Shown here: one piece after another, positions 8,266 through 42,042 of the stretch
How the letters are laid out: each line of letters starts with the position of its first letter
Position numbering within the stretch: the stretch's first letter is position 1
Assembly (NCBI GenBank): GCA_028289135.1
Contig: JAQGGW010000005.1
Location: forward strand, 139,219 to 203,218
Length of the DNA: 64,000 nt
DNA from: Candidatus Saccharimonadota bacterium
GTDB lineage: Bacteria > Patescibacteriota > Saccharimonadia > Saccharimonadales > JACDBH01
Direction of reading: 5' to 3'
Program-made: the position numbers and the translations under genes
The notes under the pieces: model-generated
Database searches by the model: none
Seen by the model: the letters and a program-made list of their open reading frames with translations, nothing else
What the model was told of the DNA's origin: nothing

Positions 8266-8349
8266 GCGCGAGTGGTGAAATGGTAGACACGCTAGCCTTA
8301 GGAGCTAGTGCCGCAAGGTGTGCTGGTTCAAGTCCAGTCTCGCGCACCA
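8266..8349 (+). tRNA. tRNA-Leu (anticodon UAG), class II, CCA encoded
   Basis: Hand-folded cloverleaf. Acceptor GCGCGAG/CTCGCGC, anticodon stem CTAGC/GCTAG with loop CTTAGGA, 13-nt variable arm, T-arm GCTGG-TTCAAGT-CCAGT, 3' ACCA. Confidence 0.9.
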
Positions 8350-35588: not shown

Positions 35589-35718
35589 GTTCTCGCCCAT
35601 TTATCAGGGTACATTGCAGGCTAAAACCTGCGACAGAAAAAGGAGCAGTACGTTTGTACAGCTCCTTTTTCGTGCTCGGCCTTAGCTCTGCACTGCACTC
35701 CTGAAAATGACCGAGAAC
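35589..35718. repeat. 130-nt whole-spacer imperfect palindrome (copy A) directly after tuf
   Basis: Outer arms GTTCTCGCCCATTT (35589-35602) / AAATGACCGAGAAC (35705-35718). The 5' half and the reverse complement of the 3' half align along the whole length. Apex is the terminator hairpin. Homologous to copy B. Confidence 0.75.
35637..35670 (+). terminator. intrinsic (bidirectional-looking) terminator of tuf
   Basis: AAAAAGGAGCAGTAC-GTTT-GTACAGCTCCTTTTT, with an A-run and a T-run flanking the stem. Confidence 0.8.
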
Positions 35719-35870
35719 GGCTCAACTACGCTTCTATGCACGGCAAGAAACGAAAAACTGCATCCAAATGCATCGGCCAGTGACATGTTTGAATTGTTCC
35801 AGGAAATGAGATTTTGTTATTTTAGTCAAAACTATGCTAAAGTAGGTTTAATTAAATGAGGTTAATTGAG

Positions 35871-36215
35871 ATGGCGGAATTTTGTCCTGGATGCGATAGA
35901 GCGGGAATGGTTGTAGGTGATGTAGCTATAAGTATAAAAAAAGACGAACTTAGAAGTCCTTTAACAGATCTAGCTATAACTTTTACAGACGAAGATGGTT
36001 TTTTGCAACGCGGTTTTTTTGGTAGAGTTGTAGACCAAGAAGCAGACCTGGATACCAGCCTACTTGGCGAACGTCTTCTCAGCCGTATAGATCGCTGTAA
36101 AAGCCCAATGAGAAATGGTACATGCCCAGCCTTTAATCATGAGGTGGTTGAACAGTTAATACGATCTCAAGTAAGCCAGGAAGCAATAACTGAGCCTGAC
36201 CAGCCAGGAATTTAG
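35871..36215 (+). CDS. hypothetical protein with two Cys pairs (possible zinc-ribbon-like)
   Basis: MAEFCPGCDRAG...RCKSPMRNGTCPAF. ATG 35871 has GAGG 9 nt upstream; ATG 35856 is also possible. Confidence 0.45.
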   Translation: MAEFCPGCDRAGMVVGDVAISIKKDELRSPLTDLAITFTDEDGFLQRGFFGRVVDQEADLDTSLLGERLLSRIDRCKSPMRNGTCPAFNHEVVEQLIRSQVSQEAITEPDQPGI

Positions 36216-36295
36216 AAAAGCAAAAATACCATCGTGTAAAGAAGCTCACTGACTTATCTAGATAGACATTCATAATAAGTATCTTAGGAGTGCTT

Positions 36296-36628
36296 ATGTC
36301 TGTAGAGTTTAAGGGGCCTGTTATACCTGTTAGAATTGATGGCGAAAATGCTTCGCTACGTATTGTGCGTGATATGTCGTATAACATCGAAGCCGCCAGC
36401 GTGCTGTCTAACCCCGATGCAAATCCACCTTATGTCCAGCTAACACTGATATCTCCTCCAGGACCGCATTATAAAGAAGTTTGTGCAGATAAAATTACAG
36501 GTGATCCTGAGCCAAACCGTGCTCGCCTTATGTTTAACGAGCCATTTGGCGTTGATAAACTTATAGCTAACGCAATGAAAAGAGTAAGCAAGTCCAGGCA
36601 CCCAGCAGGAAGAGGAAATGCGAATTAA
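36296..36628 (+). CDS. hypothetical protein (110 aa, ORFan)
   Basis: SD GGAG 5 nt upstream of ATG 36296. No recognisable motif. Confidence 0.5.
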   Translation: MSVEFKGPVIPVRIDGENASLRIVRDMSYNIEAASVLSNPDANPPYVQLTLISPPGPHYKEVCADKITGDPEPNRARLMFNEPFGVDKLIANAMKRVSKSRHPAGRGNAN

Positions 36629-36687
36629 TTAAATTGCTTGACAGTAGGAATATAATTAAAGCATAAGTATTAATAAGGAACACAAAA

Positions 36688-36918
36688 ATGAAAAATGGAT
36701 TTGAGGATTCGGTAGCTCCAGTAGCTTATGGAGCTGATTTCGCTGGGCGAGTTGCTGTTGCAAGAGTTAATATGGATCAAGTATTAGAAACTCATCCTAA
36801 ACCAGATGTAAGATCTGTTGCAGCTCATGCGGGCAAAGTAATATTTCGAGAAATTGTATTTGCAGGTGCATGGTTAAACGCTGAAATTCATGGCGTAGAT
36901 CTTAGCCAAGTTGGTTAG
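36688..36918 (+). CDS. hypothetical protein (76 aa, ORFan)
   Basis: SD AAGGAA 8 nt upstream. No recognisable motif. Confidence 0.45.
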   Translation: MKNGFEDSVAPVAYGADFAGRVAVARVNMDQVLETHPKPDVRSVAAHAGKVIFREIVFAGAWLNAEIHGVDLSQVG

Positions 36919-37047
36919 GCTTTTCTTTTAAAGAAAAATGTTGTAAGATAACAGGGTAAATTAATGACGATGACTAAAAGTCGTTGTCCCGCTCTCTATA
37001 ATGGGCCAAAGATGTTACATCGCACGTGAAGAAAGGTTTTATATATT

Positions 37048-37410
37048 ATGGCTGAAGAAAAAAAGCCCGCAGCAACCAAAGCAGCTGCACCAGTAAAAAC
37101 TGAAGGCAAGCAACGCATCCGTATCCGTCTCAAGGCATACGACCACAAAGTAATCGACCAGTCTGCTAAGCAGATTGTTGATACCGCGCTCCGCACAGGT
37201 GCTACCATTGCTGGTCCAATCCCTCTCCCAACCCGTCGTAACACCTTCACCGTTGTTACCAGCCCGCACGTGTTTAAAAAAGGTCGTGAACAGTTTGAAA
37301 TGCGTATTCACAAGCGCCTGATTGACGTTTTTGACCCAACTCCAAAGACAATCGACAGCCTCATGAACTTGAGCCTGCCAGCCGGCTGCGACGCTGAAAT
37401 CAAAATGTAA
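37048..37410 (+). CDS. rpsJ: 30S ribosomal protein S10 (with A/K/P-rich N-terminal extension)
   Basis: 120 aa; core [19 protein letters not shown]... Perfect TATAAT at 36997-37002 upstream and a terminator immediately downstream. Confidence 0.95.
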
Positions 37411-37420
37411 CCATCTAAAG

Positions 37421-37450
37421 GGGCCTGGGAAACCGGGCCTTTTACTTTTT
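37421..37450 (+). terminator. intrinsic terminator right after rpsJ
   Basis: GGCCTGG-GAAA-CCGGGCC (7 bp, one G-U, GNRA loop) followed by TTTTACTTTTT. Confidence 0.8.
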
Positions 37451-37789
37451 ATGATTCACTTTCATGCTAATTATTTCGAAGGCACGACACAGCTCGGCCC
37501 TCATGTTACTCGTACTTTTGTTATTAACGAGGCTGGCTTCAGCGTGCCTGGTGCAATAACCGCATTTGAGGAATTAGAGTTAGCACGTGTCATTACATTC
37601 GCGCCTCATGTACATTTCGACACAAATGTTGAGCATCCAAGTATTCTTGTCCGCAATTCCGTGAAGGCCGGGAAACATATTGCTAAAGTCTTACGGCTAA
37701 GCGATTGGGGGGTTGGTAACTTCTCGAATGTATTCAACACAGATGCACTAGATTTTTGGCGTCCACAACAAGCTGACGATGATCTCTAA
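37451..37789 (+). CDS. doubtful hypothetical protein (112 aa)
   Basis: The ATG abuts the T-run of the rpsJ terminator and there is no SD or promoter. No motif recognised. Confidence 0.3.
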   Translation: MIHFHANYFEGTTQLGPHVTRTFVINEAGFSVPGAITAFEELELARVITFAPHVHFDTNVEHPSILVRNSVKAGKHIAKVLRLSDWGVGNFSNVFNTDALDFWRPQQADDDL

Positions 37790-37804
37790 GAGTGGTAAGT
37801 TAAC

Positions 37805-38158
37805 AAAAAAATAACCCCGGGCCTGATAAGCTTCGGGGTTATTTCGTATTCCGTCAGATGTATTCTTCGCGCATAGCCAGCTATTTCGAATTATTGCTGA
37901 GCAGGGTTATCAGCCCTCTTTTTCACGCTAGTCTGAGTCTCGCGCCGCACGGATACAATTTGCCGCTTAGCGATGGTGCCGGAGGTAAAAGGTTGGTCAA
38001 CTCTTGTCCATGGAACAAGCCGCCGCCTCTATTTTTACAACCTTCCTACAATAGCAGCTCACAACCAGTTTGGGCCGTACCCTCGCCGCATTGCTTATCA
38101 CCCTCCCAAAACAGAAGAATGCTCCTTAAACATACACTGGAACCATAACCAAAATCAA
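37805..38158 (-). ncRNA. candidate ~350-nt structured non-coding RNA, unclassified
   Basis: No credible ORF on either strand. Minus-strand TTGACC (38192-38187), 16-18 nt, then TATATAAA (38170-38163). Minus-strand terminator AACCCCG...CGGGGTT (37840-37813) plus T7. The transcript ends pair: 38114-38142 with 37849-37868 (4+4+7 bp). Confidence 0.45.
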
Positions 38159-38209
38159 CTATTTTATATATGAAAAAACTTACAGCGGTCAAAATGGTAT
38201 ATTAAAGTC

Positions 38210-38683
38210 ATGAATAAAGTTGTTGTGGCCGCAGAAGCTTTGGACCTTAGGCGGGGAATTGATTATATTGGTATTTCGGCTAATTTTGTCATTCACGATG
38301 GCAAAGGCAATATTTTATTACAAAAACGGAGCCAGAACTGCCGTGATGAACAGGGCAACTGGGACATTGGCGGCGGGGCTTTAGAATTTGGCGAAACTCT
38401 AGTAGAAGGCGTACGGCGCGAAGTTAAAGAAGAACTAATGACCGAAGCATTGGAAATAAAACTTCTAAAAGCCTACGAAGCCATCCGTGACAACAACGGT
38501 ACGCCTACGCACTGGATGGCGTTTACCCACGCCGTGCTGGTTGATCCTAAATCTATAAAAATTGGCGAACCACACAAGATTGATGAAATTGGCTGGTTTA
38601 CATCCGCGAACTTACCGAGTCCGCTGCACAGCCAGTTTTATAAGTCTTTTGATATTGCCCGCGAGCTCGGAATTGTGCATTAA
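38210..38683 (+). CDS. NUDIX hydrolase
   Basis: 157 aa. Nudix box GGGALEFGETLVEGVRREVKEELM. Extended -10 TGGTATATT (38195-38203) lies 6 nt before the ATG. Confidence 0.88.
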   Translation: MNKVVVAAEALDLRRGIDYIGISANFVIHDGKGNILLQKRSQNCRDEQGNWDIGGGALEFGETLVEGVRREVKEELMTEALEIKLLKAYEAIRDNNGTPTHWMAFTHAVLVDPKSIKIGEPHKIDEIGWFTSANLPSPLHSQFYKSFDIARELGIVH

Positions 38684-38738
38684 TCCAACTGTGGCATATC
38701 TAACAGCTTATGCTAAAGGGTTTTGATAACTTTATTAG

Positions 38739-39035
38739 GTGGAGTTTCCCCCATACGAAGCAGGTGAAGACGAACTTCTAACGGCCGCCAGAGGTGCTGT
38801 ACCTGAACTTTGCGGTGGATGTGAAGATATTAATGAGTTGGCATTTAGTTTATATAAACATGCTGCATATGAACGTGATTTTTTTAGACGTGATAGGCGT
38901 TCCAGATATCCTGATACTTTACGGATGCAACCTCCAAATCCAGAGCGCCTAGCCAGACACATATCCCTTGTTATTGTGGCAAAATGTTTATCACAGTGTC
39001 CATACGGCGTCCCTGTGCGAATAAGAACTTCTTAG
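38739..39035 (+). CDS. hypothetical protein with CGGC and CLSQC pairs (98 aa)
   Basis: GTG start without a convincing SD. Two Cys pairs. Confidence 0.3.
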   Translation: MEFPPYEAGEDELLTAARGAVPELCGGCEDINELAFSLYKHAAYERDFFRRDRRSRYPDTLRMQPPNPERLARHISLVIVAKCLSQCPYGVPVRIRTS

Positions 39036-39050
39036 TGCTACACTTAATTT

Positions 39051-39944
39051 ATGAAATTTGGCGCTACTTTTTCATATAAATATGCCCTGGAAATGAGCGT
39101 TGACCCCAAGGAGTGTCTAAAAGCGGCACTGGATGATCTGGGTGTAAGGAGATTGCGCCTTATGAGCTACTGGGATCTCCACGAACCCAAACAAGGCTCC
39201 TACGACTTCACAGAGCTCGACTGGCAGGTTGATATGGCCGAGCAGTCTAATTGTGCTGTTTTGCTATGCCTTGGCCTCCGGCAGCCCCGTTGGCCCGAGA
39301 GCCATTGGCCGGCTTGGGCAAAAGTGTTACCGGATGCAGAGTGGCAAAAGGCGCTGGACGACTACATTACAGTGGTGGTTAACAGATATAAAGGCCGGAA
39401 ATGTATCTTAAGCTATGAGTTAGAAAACGAAGCACTGCTAAAAGCCTTTGGACTAGATGGTAACTATGACCGTAACAGATTAAAACGTGAGTTTAAACTG
39501 GTTAAAACATTGGATCCAAGCCGGATAGTCATAATGAGCACCAGCGACTCCGGCGGTTTCCCATTATTTGGCCCAAAACCAGATATGTACTCCTACACAA
39601 TCTACCGTTACTTCTTTAGGCGCGGCAAGTACCGCCACTCTGTCCGCCCAGCTTGGACATACCACCTGCGGGCACAAATTATCTATCTGTTTAAGCGCCG
39701 TAAATCTTTCATCCATGAGCTCCAAGCTGAACCGTGGGGTCCAGAAGGCACTTCAAAGTTAACTGTCGAAGAGCAGTTTAAGAGTATGAACAGGGAAAGA
39801 GTCCAGGAAGCTGTGGCATACGTGCGCCGTACGCAACTGCTTCCAGCTGACCTTTGGGGCTTGGAGTGGTGGTACTGGCTAAAAACGGCTCAAGATATGC
39901 CGGAAATATGGAATGACCTAAAACCTATATTCGCTGAGGAATAA
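39051..39944 (+). CDS. glycoside hydrolase, clan GH-A TIM-barrel-like (family unassigned)
   Basis: 297 aa. SYELENE (acid/base-type NE) and IHELQAEPWG (nucleophile-type E) spaced as in clan-A enzymes. Confidence 0.6.
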   Translation: MKFGATFSYKYALEMSVDPKECLKAALDDLGVRRLRLMSYWDLHEPKQGSYDFTELDWQVDMAEQSNCAVLLCLGLRQPRWPESHWPAWAKVLPDAEWQKALDDYITVVVNRYKGRKCILSYELENEALLKAFGLDGNYDRNRLKREFKLVKTLDPSRIVIMSTSDSGGFPLFGPKPDMYSYTIYRYFFRRGKYRHSVRPAWTYHLRAQIIYLFKRRKSFIHELQAEPWGPEGTSKLTVEEQFKSMNRERVQEAVAYVRRTQLLPADLWGLEWWYWLKTAQDMPEIWNDLKPIFAEE

Positions 39945-39949
39945 CAGTT

Positions 39950-40495
39950 CTACTCTCCAAATAAACTGGTGGTGGTTGCCATACCAACAGTAACCGTTGC
40001 TAACATCTGTAGTGGGTGCTTTTTGCCATCCTGGTTGCCTACGCGTATAAATCTATCAAAAAATGCCGCTCGCGCACCCCAGTAAGAGGTAAATCTTGTG
40101 TCCACGTGCGCTGCTCTGCGTGGATCTACTTTTGCACTTCTAGCTGCCGCACCTAGAGCGTTTAGTGAAGTTAAAAACCCGCCGTATTCGTTGGGAGCAT
40201 ATACGGGAGGGTAGCCAAGCTGCGCCTGGACCATTTCAACCAAAGTAGACGAAATTCCACAGGCATCCGCCGGGAGGTCTTGGTGGTTGTCGTTTATAAT
40301 CGCGGTTTTGATCCCAACTTCGGCCAATTCCTCAAGCAATGTCTGTGCATGCTCATGTACATCATAAGTGTTACTACCATGAGCTAGCATCAAACTACCA
40401 AGTCCAAAGGTAACCAGGCCAATACCGCCTTGCTCAAACCCTTTTGCGTTAAGTTTGCTTAAGTCGACGCCTACTTCTATTCCAGTTCTTAACAT
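39950..40495 (-). CDS. hypothetical protein (181 aa)
   Basis: Only sizeable minus-strand ORF inside the r-protein region that does not overlap a plus-strand gene. No motif recognised. Confidence 0.5.
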   Translation of the reverse strand: MLRTGIEVGVDLSKLNAKGFEQGGIGLVTFGLGSLMLAHGSNTYDVHEHAQTLLEELAEVGIKTAIINDNHQDLPADACGISSTLVEMVQAQLGYPPVYAPNEYGGFLTSLNALGAAARSAKVDPRRAAHVDTRFTSYWGARAAFFDRFIRVGNQDGKKHPLQMLATVTVGMATTTSLFGE

Positions 40496-40584
40496 GCGTA
40501 CAAGTGTAGGGCAGCCTTATATTAAAGTAAAACGCTAAAGCTAATGTAAAATATGCTGCAACACGCAGTAGAATGCACAACGTC

Positions 40585-40614
40585 TTGACAGGGGTAGTGT
40601 TAGCATGGTAATCT
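40585..40614 (+). promoter_or_regulatory. promoter TTGACA-N18-TAATCT (extended TG) of the rplC operon
   Basis: -35 at 40585-40590, TGG at 40606-40608, -10 at 40609-40614. Confidence 0.6.
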
Positions 40615-40647
40615 GTAGTGGTATATCAACAAATTGTGTACGCAGCA

Positions 40648-40701
40648 CTTGGTAAATTGGCAGGTCTAACAGATTAGAAACCGCCTCCTACCAAGGTTTT
40701 T
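40648..40701 (+). promoter_or_regulatory. terminator-like hairpin in the rplC leader (possible autoregulatory attenuator)
   Basis: Three stacked helices: CTTGGTA/TACCAAG, GGC(A)GG/CCGCC and TCTAA/TTAGA. Followed by GTTTTT, 55 nt before the rplC ATG. Confidence 0.5.
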
Positions 40702-40756
40702 AATAGCTGTGCCTCACAGAGATATCGAAAGATAACTCATAAAAAATAAGGAATCT

Positions 40757-41374
40757 ATGAAAGCACTTATTACTCGAAAGGTCGGCATGACAAGCCTAGT
40801 ATCTGATACTGGTGTTGTTACTGCTGTTACCTTGCTTTCCGCTAGTCCTTGCGTCATTACGCAAGTGAAGACCATTGATACTGATGGGTATCAAGCGGTC
40901 CAAATTGGCACAGAAGTTGCCAAGAACGCCAGCAAGCCGGCTCAAGGCCACGCTACCAAAGCTGGTGTAGCACCATCAAAAATTACACGCGAAATCCGCG
41001 TGGACGAAATCACAGAAGAATTAACCGTCGGCACCGAACTCAAGGCCGACGTTTTTAGTGTCGGTGATTCCGTCCAAGTTACTGGGACAAGCAAGGGTAA
41101 AGGCTTTGCCGGAACCATCAAGCGCCACAATTTTAAGCGCCAGCGCAAAACCCACGGTGGTAAGGGTGATACCCGCAAGCCAGGCTCAATTGGCTCAATG
41201 TACCCACAGCGTATTTTTAAGGGCAAGCGTATGGCTGGCCGCATGGGCGGTGACCAAGTTACTGTTCGCGGTCTCAAGATTGAACTTGTTGACACAGAGC
41301 TAAACGTTATCGCTGTCAGCGGAGCCGTTCCTGGCCCGCGTAAAAGCATTGTGCTACTGAAAGGAACCAACTAA
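40757..41374 (+). CDS. rplC: 50S ribosomal protein L3
   Basis: 205 aa, MKALITRKVGMTS...; conserved L3 blocks. Confidence 0.96.
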   Translation: MKALITRKVGMTSLVSDTGVVTAVTLLSASPCVITQVKTIDTDGYQAVQIGTEVAKNASKPAQGHATKAGVAPSKITREIRVDEITEELTVGTELKADVFSVGDSVQVTGTSKGKGFAGTIKRHNFKRQRKTHGGKGDTRKPGSIGSMYPQRIFKGKRMAGRMGGDQVTVRGLKIELVDTELNVIAVSGAVPGPRKSIVLLKGTN

Positions 41375-42042
41375 TGAGCGTCCCTACTTATACCAAGGCC
41401 GGCGTTAAAGCTACGACCGCCGCAAAGCTTCCAAAAGGCATTTTTGACCTTGAAGTAACTTCCCACGAACTTTTAAAGCAGGCTTACACCGCTTATATGT
41501 CCAACAGCCGCACCGTAAATGCTCACACGCTCAAGCGCGGTGAAGTATCTGGTGGTGGCCGCAAACCATGGAAGCAAAAGGGAACTGGCCGCGCACGTTT
41601 TGGTTCGATCCGCGTTCCAATTTGGCGTGGCGGTGGTATTACTTTTGGTCCAACTGGCAACGAAAACTTTACCAAAGAACTTCCAGTTAAGACCAAGCGC
41701 CAGGCTATCCGCCAGGCACTCAGCGTCAAGAACGACGTTATCTCTGTTATCGACGAAATTGATTTCAAAGACGGCAAAGTTGCACCAGTTGCAGCACTTC
41801 TAAGCAAACTTGGCGCTACCAAGAAAGTATTGATTGTTGTTGACGCTAAGGACGAAATGTCAGTCCGCGCAACCCGCAACCTGGCTGACGTTAAGGTTAC
41901 CCAAGCCCGCTACCTAAATGTGTATGACCTGCTTAATGCCGACTCAGTCATCATTACTGCAAAATCACTCGACATCATTGCTGAATGGCTTGCTCCAACT
42001 TCTGCTGCCGCAACTGGCAAAACAGCTAAGGAGACCAAATAA
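41374..42042 (+). CDS. rplD: 50S ribosomal protein L4
   Basis: 222 aa. GGGRKPWKQKGTGRAR motif. TAATG overlap with rplC. Confidence 0.96.
   Translation: MSVPTYTKAGVKATTAAKLPKGIFDLEVTSHELLKQAYTAYMSNSRTVNAHTLKRGEVSGGGRKPWKQKGTGRARFGSIRVPIWRGGGITFGPTGNENFTKELPVKTKRQAIRQALSVKNDVISVIDEIDFKDGKVAPVAALLSKLGATKKVLIVVDAKDEMSVRATRNLADVKVTQARYLNVYDLLNADSVIITAKSLDIIAEWLAPTSAAATGKTAKETK

Follow-up and report, generated by a model that had tools for sequence, protein, structure and literature searches.

A candidate structured RNA gene of about 350 nt, with few known relatives, between ORF112 and a NUDIX gene of a Saccharibacteria genome

What, if anything, is encoded by the roughly 350 nt which separate two small genes of a Saccharibacteria genome and in which no protein can credibly be read? 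The question is raised by a stretch of 64,000 nt from a Candidatus Saccharimonadota bacterium (contig JAQGGW010000005.1, positions 139,219 to 203,218), hereafter the window, where an element free of open reading frames (ORFs) lies between ORF112 and a NUDIX gene (see Table 1 for all coordinates). An earlier interpretation of the letters of this DNA, the sequence-only reading, had seen in it an RNA gene. That idea stood up to our analysis: we found a predicted ORF-free minus-strand unit outside the known families, homologues of it, terminators on a shared strand and covarying helices. We conclude with moderate confidence that the element is a stand-alone gene for a structured non-coding RNA (ncRNA) of about 350 nt, read from the minus strand and belonging to a new, narrowly distributed family.

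The region 37805-38160 is without any credible coding frame, as had been claimed. Its sole long frame, of 96 aa on the plus strand (37858-38148), has zero Pfam matches, gave only two weak, multi-stretch matches among 1.84 billion representative proteins, and has no counterpart in the homologous region of L082 (loci from related organisms are designated here by such numbers, followed where needed by positions). When four copies of the element, which are described below, were compared by tblastx with 130 related loci and with the window, no protein-level similarity was found, and we rejected the idea of a pseudogene; between the copies themselves, the conserved blocks found by tblastx fall in different reading frames.

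Using nhmmer, the window element was matched to the first 323-345 nt of L082/L127 with E = 3e-9 to 1.6e-11 and about 60% identity (E = 1.6e-11 for L127:2-323). Five related copies from four other metagenomic organisms were retained, which gives a set of six copies in five organisms. Subfamily A consists of the window copy and of L127:1-345, and subfamily B of three full copies (L127, L129, L212) and one partial copy (L211, cut by the contig end); in L127, A and B are in tandem, with B placed between A and the NUDIX gene. The B copies match one another at E = 8e-47 or better (E = 8e-47 for L129), a hidden Markov model (HMM) of subfamily B matches the A copy in L082/L127 at about 1e-5, and a covariance model built from B only recovers the L127 A copy in both its 3' domain (E = 0.004) and its 5' domain (E = 2e-4). 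The four-way alignment is colinear, with 3' domains of 177-182 nt and 5' domains of 152-165 nt, A and B being of similar length. All copies are ORF-free and antisense to the neighbouring genes, as far as the contig reaches in the case of L211, and each of them is terminated on the identical strand by a stem and a U-run. The window copy has these features of the group: it is an ORF-free antisense unit of about 350 nt with a terminator, and it carries the hairpin P6, the helix PK and the complementarity of the P6 and terminator loops which are described next. On these comparisons the elements appear to form a small family of six copies and two subfamilies, equal in length and colinear in architecture.

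Do these copies preserve a fold? In the 3' domain of subfamily B we recognised helix P5 (GAUGUCC/GGAUAUC), helix P7 (AUCUUG/UGAGAU), hairpin P6 and helix PK (GCGCUG/CAGCGU), which joins the P5 loop to the segment preceding the terminator; PK crosses P5 and hence forms a pseudoknot. P5, PK, P7 and P6 are 94-100% paired in B; there are two double-compensated pairs in each of P5, PK and P7 and one in P6, and the B 3' domain as a whole has 8 double-change pairs, to be compared with 4.0 in shuffles (7/500) and with 0-3 in slid controls. When only the two A copies are compared, pairing is complete (100%) in PK, P6 and the terminator, which together show 6 double changes (4/500; 0-2 in slid controls). 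In the fitted A+B alignment, 91.7% of the cells are paired versus 77% in shuffles, and there are 11 double-change pairs versus 5.0 (0/500). Helix by helix, L127 retains all 9 PK pairs of the window (GUAUCUGC/GCAGAAUAU) with 2 double changes, a number also found in the topologically equivalent PK helix of B. Its P6 stem reads GCCG/CGGC, with 3 double changes around a loop identical to that of the window, and every B copy has a hairpin at the P6 position. L127 also preserves the terminator stem, one pair being compensatory, and all B copies have an equivalent of this stem together with a U-run. Helices P5, P6, P7, PK and the terminator thus appear to be maintained by compensatory substitutions, P5 and P7 being uncertain in the window copy. 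The sequence-only reading had named conservation with compensatory changes in relatives as a check, and there we find both homologues (E = 1.6e-11 to L127) and covarying helices.

In the 5' domain, the minimum-free-energy fold of the window copy contains the long hairpin P3/P4, at whose place a hairpin of other sequence is seen by eye in L127 (GUCUUUGAUC/GAUUAAAGUC) and in B, with 6 double changes in B. Hairpin P2 corresponds, by position only, to GUACC...GGUAC in L127 and to GGUAUCACC-GAGGA-GGUGUACC in B. A further helix, P1 (GUGUAU with CUGUAGG), was predicted for B; we rejected it because a hand check showed that the differences in subfamily A are not compensated. Nor did the pairing of the two transcript ends put forward by the sequence-only reading survive: all 15 of its 15 pairs can form in the window, 7/15 in L127, none is compensated and 111 of 500 shuffles do equally well. 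One can notice that the GGAA arm of this proposed pairing sits inside the covarying PK helix.

In the window, the P6 loop CUGAUAA and the terminator-loop heptamer UUAUCAG form a 7-nt Watson-Crick run, attained in 41/20000 loop shuffles and also recovered as an inverted repeat. At the equivalent two loops, the B copies have CUUUACC/GGUAAAG, again 7 nt long (21-31/20000 shuffles). Since A and B use different sequences at the same two places, this looks like a conserved tertiary contact. The complementarity extends over 5-7 nt in subfamily B and the window and is weaker in L212 and L211; in the A copy of L127 the run is of 4 nt and is not significant. Between P6 and the 3' conserved block, both A copies also contain the palindrome UUCGAA, at the aligned place of which all four B copies have UCUAGA (L127:~481-486); this hexamer could be a dimerisation loop or a coincidence.

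The terminator loop has a second possible partner in the window: UGAUAAGC (38100-38093), just 3' of P2, is perfectly complementary over 8 nt to GCUUAUCA (37824-37831) in that loop. It is not found at the homologous place in other copies.

An engaged terminator loop invites another interpretation, that of a conditional terminator or "orphan riboswitch", in which a ligand- or protein-sensing RNA would tune the read-through of its own terminator by way of the contact between the P6 and terminator loops. The read-through would be antisense into ORF112/rpsJ in the window, into the NUDIX gene in L211 and into the A copy in L127, and it is true that each cassette is convergent with the gene beyond its terminator, that a covarying long-range pairing involves the terminator loop, and that the 8-nt segment just mentioned may serve as an alternative partner in the window. 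However, the loop contact and the terminator stem are not in competition and there is no obvious antiterminator; the alternative partner is missing from the homologous place in other copies, no aptamer family was matched, and an 11-bp stem followed by U7 suggests efficient, constitutive termination. We consider this interpretation unlikely. A riboswitch or cis-acting leader of the ordinary kind was rejected, as the minus-strand RNA ends at the terminator and the next gene, ORF112, is convergent.

On which strand would the RNA be read? The strong terminator hairpin with seven T which had been noticed at the left end is confirmed as an 11-bp stem (AAAUAACCCCG/CGGGGUUAUUU) followed by U7, and U-runs behind the terminators occur on the minus strand only. 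The paired columns contain 16 G·U pairs against 5 A·C pairs, which favours the minus strand as the RNA strand. The same terminator probably also stops the convergent rpsJ-ORF112 transcript. These data bear on the idea that the element serves the NUDIX gene, as a 5' leader or a regulatory element on the plus strand. It does lie directly upstream of that gene in the window, L127, L129 and L212. Against this, the U-runs and the G·U pairs are on the minus strand, the NUDIX gene owns a conserved extended -10 located 6-7 nt before its ATG, L084 and L121 have the NUDIX gene without such a leader, and the element of L211 is downstream of the NUDIX gene; we hold this idea to be extremely improbable.

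The minus-strand promoter announced by the sequence-only reading fared less well than the terminator. TTGACC and the 16-nt spacing are there, and the site aligns base for base with TTGTTG-N16-TATATATT in the A copy of L127 (TTGTTG-N16-TATATA(TT)); yet the promoter is weaker than described, its -10 being without the final T. We regard it as plausible but imperfect, relying on the exact positional match in L127. In the B copies the -10 is poor. All family members except the window copy share a nearly invariant 19-mer, TTGTTGCnGATACTACAAC, which spans the -35 and the spacer (L127:355-373 and 762-780, L129:585-603, and the printed sequences of L212 and L213); it occurs twice each in L082, L127 and L128, and is present in L129. 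As it is the best-conserved block of the family, it suggests a regulator-binding site. On the other strand, the motif TGnTATATT is conserved 6-7 nt upstream of the NUDIX ATG in L082 (~797-816), L129 (~634-653) and L212 (~424-443), and in these loci as in the window no Shine-Dalgarno sequence accompanies this -10, which suggests that the NUDIX mRNA is leaderless or nearly so. The complement of the NUDIX -10, TAATAT on the minus strand, could be an alternative, divergent -10 for the RNA. As the candidate start signals differ, the 5' end of the predicted RNA may be anywhere from ~38155 to 38195, an uncertainty of about 40 nt.

Table 1. Positions in the window of the element, of its predicted parts and of the neighbouring genes (arms of minus-strand helices are given in the direction of the RNA)
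Feature	Position	Strand	Remarks
ORF-free element	37805..38157 (5' end approximate)	minus	predicted structured ncRNA, ~350 nt, subfamily A
Intrinsic terminator	37805..37844	minus	11-bp stem AAAUAACCCCG/CGGGGUUAUUU (arms 37844-37834 / 37819-37809), 14-nt loop, U7 at 37811-37805
Terminator-loop heptamer UUAUCAG	37823..37829	minus	complementary to P6 loop CUGAUAA; proposed kissing contact
PK 3' arm ACGGAAUAC	37846..37854	minus	pairs with 37956-37949
Self-complementary hexamer UUCGAA	37885..37890	minus	palindrome between P6 and the 3' conserved block
Hairpin P6	37903..37918	minus	GAGGG-CUGAUAA-CCCU, loop 37913-37907
PK 5' arm GUAUCCGU	37949..37956	minus	pairs with 37854-37846
Long hairpin P3/P4	37988..38045	minus	minimum-free-energy fold; P3 = GAAGGUUG/CAACCUUU (38045-38038 / 37995-37988), P4 = CUUGUUC-CAU-GGACAAG (38019-38003)
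Conserved motif UUGUAGGAAGG	38041..38051	minus	family consensus CUGUAGG in the four-way alignment
Hairpin P2 CAUUCUUCU-GUUUU-GGGAGGGUG	38099..38121	minus	3' arm with family-wide Shine-Dalgarno-like GAGG(G/U)
Conserved 5' motif GUGUAUGUUUAA	38126..38137	minus	family consensus GUGUAUKUUUA
Promoter-like site TTGACC-N16-TATATAAA	38163..38192	minus	TTGACC 38192-38187, TATATAAA 38170-38163
NUDIX extended -10 TGGTATATT	38195..38203	plus	candidate read from the sequence; ends 6 nt before ATG
Left copy of 11-nt imperfect direct repeat	37793..37803	plus	TGGTAAGTTAA
Right copy of 11-nt imperfect direct repeat	38195-38205	plus	TGGTATATTAA
ORF112, 112 aa	37451-37789	plus	left neighbour of the element
NUDIX gene	38210-38683	plus	right neighbour of the element
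rpsJ (S10)	37048-37410		
rplC/rplD	40757-41994		

Could the RNA nevertheless be the messenger of some very small protein, such as a peptide resembling type I toxins, with structured untranslated regions? Shine-Dalgarno-like GAGG/AAGGAGG motifs are conserved; AAGGAGG-N5-AUG opens a frame of 13 codons in the A copy of L127, GGGAGGG-N10-AUG one of 10 codons in the window, and 3/4 of the B copies have a 15-16 codon frame ending in ...LYQLF... before the stop. The tandem copies and the patchy distribution also resemble type I toxin-antitoxin loci (hok/sok, aapA/isoA), as do a predicted transcript of about 350 nt, a strong terminator, internal Shine-Dalgarno-like motifs sequestered in hairpins and the pairing of 5' and 3' ends which had been proposed. 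However, the inventory of small ORFs in five copies contains none common to A and B and none common to both A copies, whether one compares position, frame or sequence. In L212 two indels break and then restore the B frame, whose substitutions are the very compensatory changes that preserve the P6 stem; the window peptides lack hydrophobicity, and neither an antisense partner RNA nor its gene was detected. The end pairing, with 7/15 pairs in L127 and 0 compensatory changes, is not conserved. Hence a type I toxin mRNA was rejected, and small-protein messengers at large seem to us very unlikely.

Among the B copies considered for this short frame (L127 (B), L129, L211, L212), the 15-16 codon ORF (MDIDLEKELYQLFLRF, MLITKQGLYQLFPGLF, MPVLKKGLYQFFLMF) stops at the UAG of UCUAGA; the A copies have no equivalent.

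If the element is an RNA gene, does it belong to a known family? We scanned with cmscan against Rfam 15 (4227 families). At the gathering threshold the sole match in the whole window is a tRNA at 8266; at E<=10, the segment 37400-38400 yields terminator look-alikes only, of 23 bits or less, and at E<=1 the homologues L127, L129, L212 and L211 yield 0 matches. No covariance-model match for the element was thus obtained with RNase P RNA, tmRNA, SRP RNA, 6S RNA or other Rfam 15 families, and ARAGORN found over the whole window only a tRNA-Leu (8266-8349) and no tmRNA. These searches agree with the sequence-only reading, which had been unable to place the locus among RNase P, tmRNA, SRP, 6S or 5S. 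A full-text literature search returned no description of such an RNA, nor of any small RNA (sRNA) or structured ncRNA in Saccharibacteria or other bacteria of the candidate phyla radiation (CPR). Two further candidates were tried and rejected. A sponge of the CsrB/RsmZ type would be expected to stand out by its GGA motifs, of which there are 5-8 per copy as against shuffle means of 5.9-7.3. TIGR and CRISPR-like guide arrays occur in CPR bacteria (PMC12045711); Tandem Repeats Finder reports 0 rows in 37000-39000, where only short scattered direct repeats are found.

We now turn to the setting of the element. The S10 and EF-Tu proteins assign the window to Saccharibacteria, and its NUDIX protein is identical to that of a Saccharibacteria MAG at NCBI. 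In the window the S10 ribosomal-protein operon is split (37048-41994), rpsJ being separated from rplC/rplD by about 3.3 kb filled with accessory genes: ORF112, the RNA cassette, the NUDIX gene, a 98-aa ORF, a glycosyl-hydrolase-like gene and a minus-strand ORF of 181 aa. Searches of the ORFs flanking the element with Pfam and PADLOC recovered the NUDIX domain only. ORF112, which has zero Pfam or PADLOC family matches and which the sequence-only reading had called doubtful, is better described as a real conserved gene, because a homologue stands at the equivalent position in L084 (L084:1854-2171, 62% amino acid identity over 106 aa). In relatives, the NUDIX gene follows rpsJ directly or comes behind unrelated small ORFs. 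The gap between tuf and rpsJ likewise differs greatly in length, with values of 32 to 2545 nt in 78 Saccharibacteria loci; in the window it measures 1.46 kb (35589-37047) and holds three small ORFs of 119, 112 and 76 aa, with zero Pfam matches and zero homologues in 80 related loci. In L126, the spacer between rpsJ and the NUDIX gene (L126:793-965) is an ORF-free segment of 170 nt with two plus-strand terminator-like hairpins, whose sequence is unrelated to the A/B family.

In L084 the gene order rpsJ, ORF112 homologue, NUDIX is that of the window, with the last two genes 51 nt apart, and at this junction the window has about 400 extra bases. The insertion of about 400 bp is flanked in the window by the two copies of an 11-nt imperfect direct repeat (TGGTAAGTTAA and TGGTATATTAA), while in the empty site of L084 one TGGTAAGATAA separates the ORF112 homologue from the NUDIX ATG. 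This makes the element an insertion/deletion cassette. In L211 the B-type element (L211:728-861) has its place downstream of the NUDIX gene, and the two are convergent, which means that the cassette can sit in different intergenic sites. The element is absent from seven of the nearest relatives examined; L084 has the empty site, L121, L122, L124/L125, L126, L130 and L214 are likewise without the element, and an exact-protein look-up of the nearest NUDIX relatives showed that most are without it. A search by S10 synteny in 80 Saccharibacteria loci gave zero copies and a variable interval between rpsJ and the NUDIX gene; scans of viral contigs with two conserved motifs gave chance 16-mer matches or nothing. 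These comparisons show the element to be accessory, inserted into the variable rpsJ-rplC region in a clade of Saccharibacteria from soil.

Such a history would also suit an inert cassette acting, if at all, at the level of DNA: variable intergenic DNA with a bidirectional terminator and promoters at a recombination hot spot, the helices being chance or palindromes. The patchy distribution with loss in seven of the nearest relatives examined, the 11-nt repeat bracketing the insertion, the unrelated small ORFs found in the rpsJ-NUDIX interval of other genomes and a folding z-score of about 0 are all in its favour. But homologues of about 60% identity keep the length, the order of hairpins and, through double substitutions in several helices, the pairing; the loop-loop complementarity has been re-invented with a different sequence in B; and G·U exceeds A·C in a strand-specific manner, unlike what DNA palindromes would give. 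We therefore attach little probability to an inert cassette.

Several observations weigh against the structured RNA gene which we prefer. Some concern the window copy itself, which is the most divergent member of the family. Its single-sequence folding energy equals that of shuffles on both strands (z = -0.1 and 0.05). P5 and P7, which are clear in B and in the A copy of L127, are ambiguous in it, two alternative registers being possible (CGCUA/UAGCG; GCGUG/UAUGC or GCGCG/UGCGC), and the covariance model aligns P5 poorly. The B-only model gives the window copy 9.2 bits (E = 1.2 over the window, rank 2), which is not significant, and the 5'-domain covariance model fails to detect it; the covariance model R2 reaches 61 bits on 37850-37980 of the minus strand, the window sequence being itself part of that model. 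The candidate -10 hexamers (TATATA, ATATAA, TATAAA) are all without T at position 6, for which reason a consensus promoter scan omits the site, and the 19-mer is absent from the window with up to 3 mismatches (<=3), TTGACC-N16 standing at the aligned place. Others concern the family. The covariation statistics have little power, as there are but six copies from five organisms, of which three are rather alike; the A+B alignment, having been fitted to the model, leans towards it. A model of all six copies found zero further members in about 1.1 Mb of Saccharibacteria rpsJ/NUDIX neighbourhoods and in the rest of the window, which, together with the absence from seven of the nearest relatives examined, means that the family is rare and dispensable. 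Finally, a role in trans of the predicted RNA is something that we only infer.

How would a structured RNA gene of this kind work? The predicted RNA would start from TTGACC-N16-TATATA, end at the U7 tract and adopt a compact fold of two domains, with the terminator hairpin docked onto P6. It may act in trans as a folded molecule, binding a protein or a small ligand or serving as a scaffold, and not as a simple antisense regulator, because what A and B conserve is an architecture with its tertiary pairing and not an extended single-stranded seed. A by-product would be that the cassette gives a terminator to the upstream operon and stands back to back with the NUDIX promoter.

The element shares with trans-acting sRNA genes, which have a sigma-70 promoter and a Rho-independent terminator, the succession of promoter, RNA and terminator within the RNA, as well as the intergenic position, the tandem paralogues and the fast gain and loss. 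It differs from typical base-pairing sRNAs in being three to four times longer and in conserving helices, a pseudoknot and a loop-loop contact in place of a single-stranded seed. In kind it resembles OLE, GOLLD, ROOL and the raiA motif RNA, large orphan RNAs discovered by comparative genomics, none of which has an assigned role: like them it is stand-alone, ORF-free and several hundred nt long, with many conserved helices, long-range tertiary pairings and a narrow or patchy distribution. Unlike them, it has no sequence or structure match in Rfam 15, and its architecture, so far as one can tell, is unrelated to theirs; OLE, GOLLD and ROOL are also larger, and the six known copies of the element come from one Saccharibacteria clade.

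A bolder extension can be formulated, which we find possible but rather unlikely: the A and B elements would be a new, compactly folded class of "ornate" RNA in CPR bacteria, self-assembling or endowed with a new ligand-sensing or catalytic fold. Here the paralogues would keep orthogonal loop pairs (CUGAUAA/UUAUCAG versus CUUUACC/GGUAAAG) and orthogonal hexamers (UUCGAA versus UCUAGA), and such contacts would suggest specific self-assembly into a dimer or a higher-order RNA complex. If this were true, a small cassette that is gained and lost would rewire the transcription of neighbouring genes.

The genomes of Saccharibacteria and of other CPR bacteria are tiny and contain little non-coding DNA. 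Should the element prove inert, it would still document a variable hot spot within a normally rigid ribosomal-protein operon, and the gain and loss of the cassette in the split rpsJ-rplC region offers a concrete case of turnover of an accessory non-coding gene. With its pseudoknot and covarying loop-loop contact, an RNA such as this, of about 350 nt, would be more elaborate than ordinary base-pairing sRNAs, and would extend the short list of large bacterial RNAs without an assigned role.

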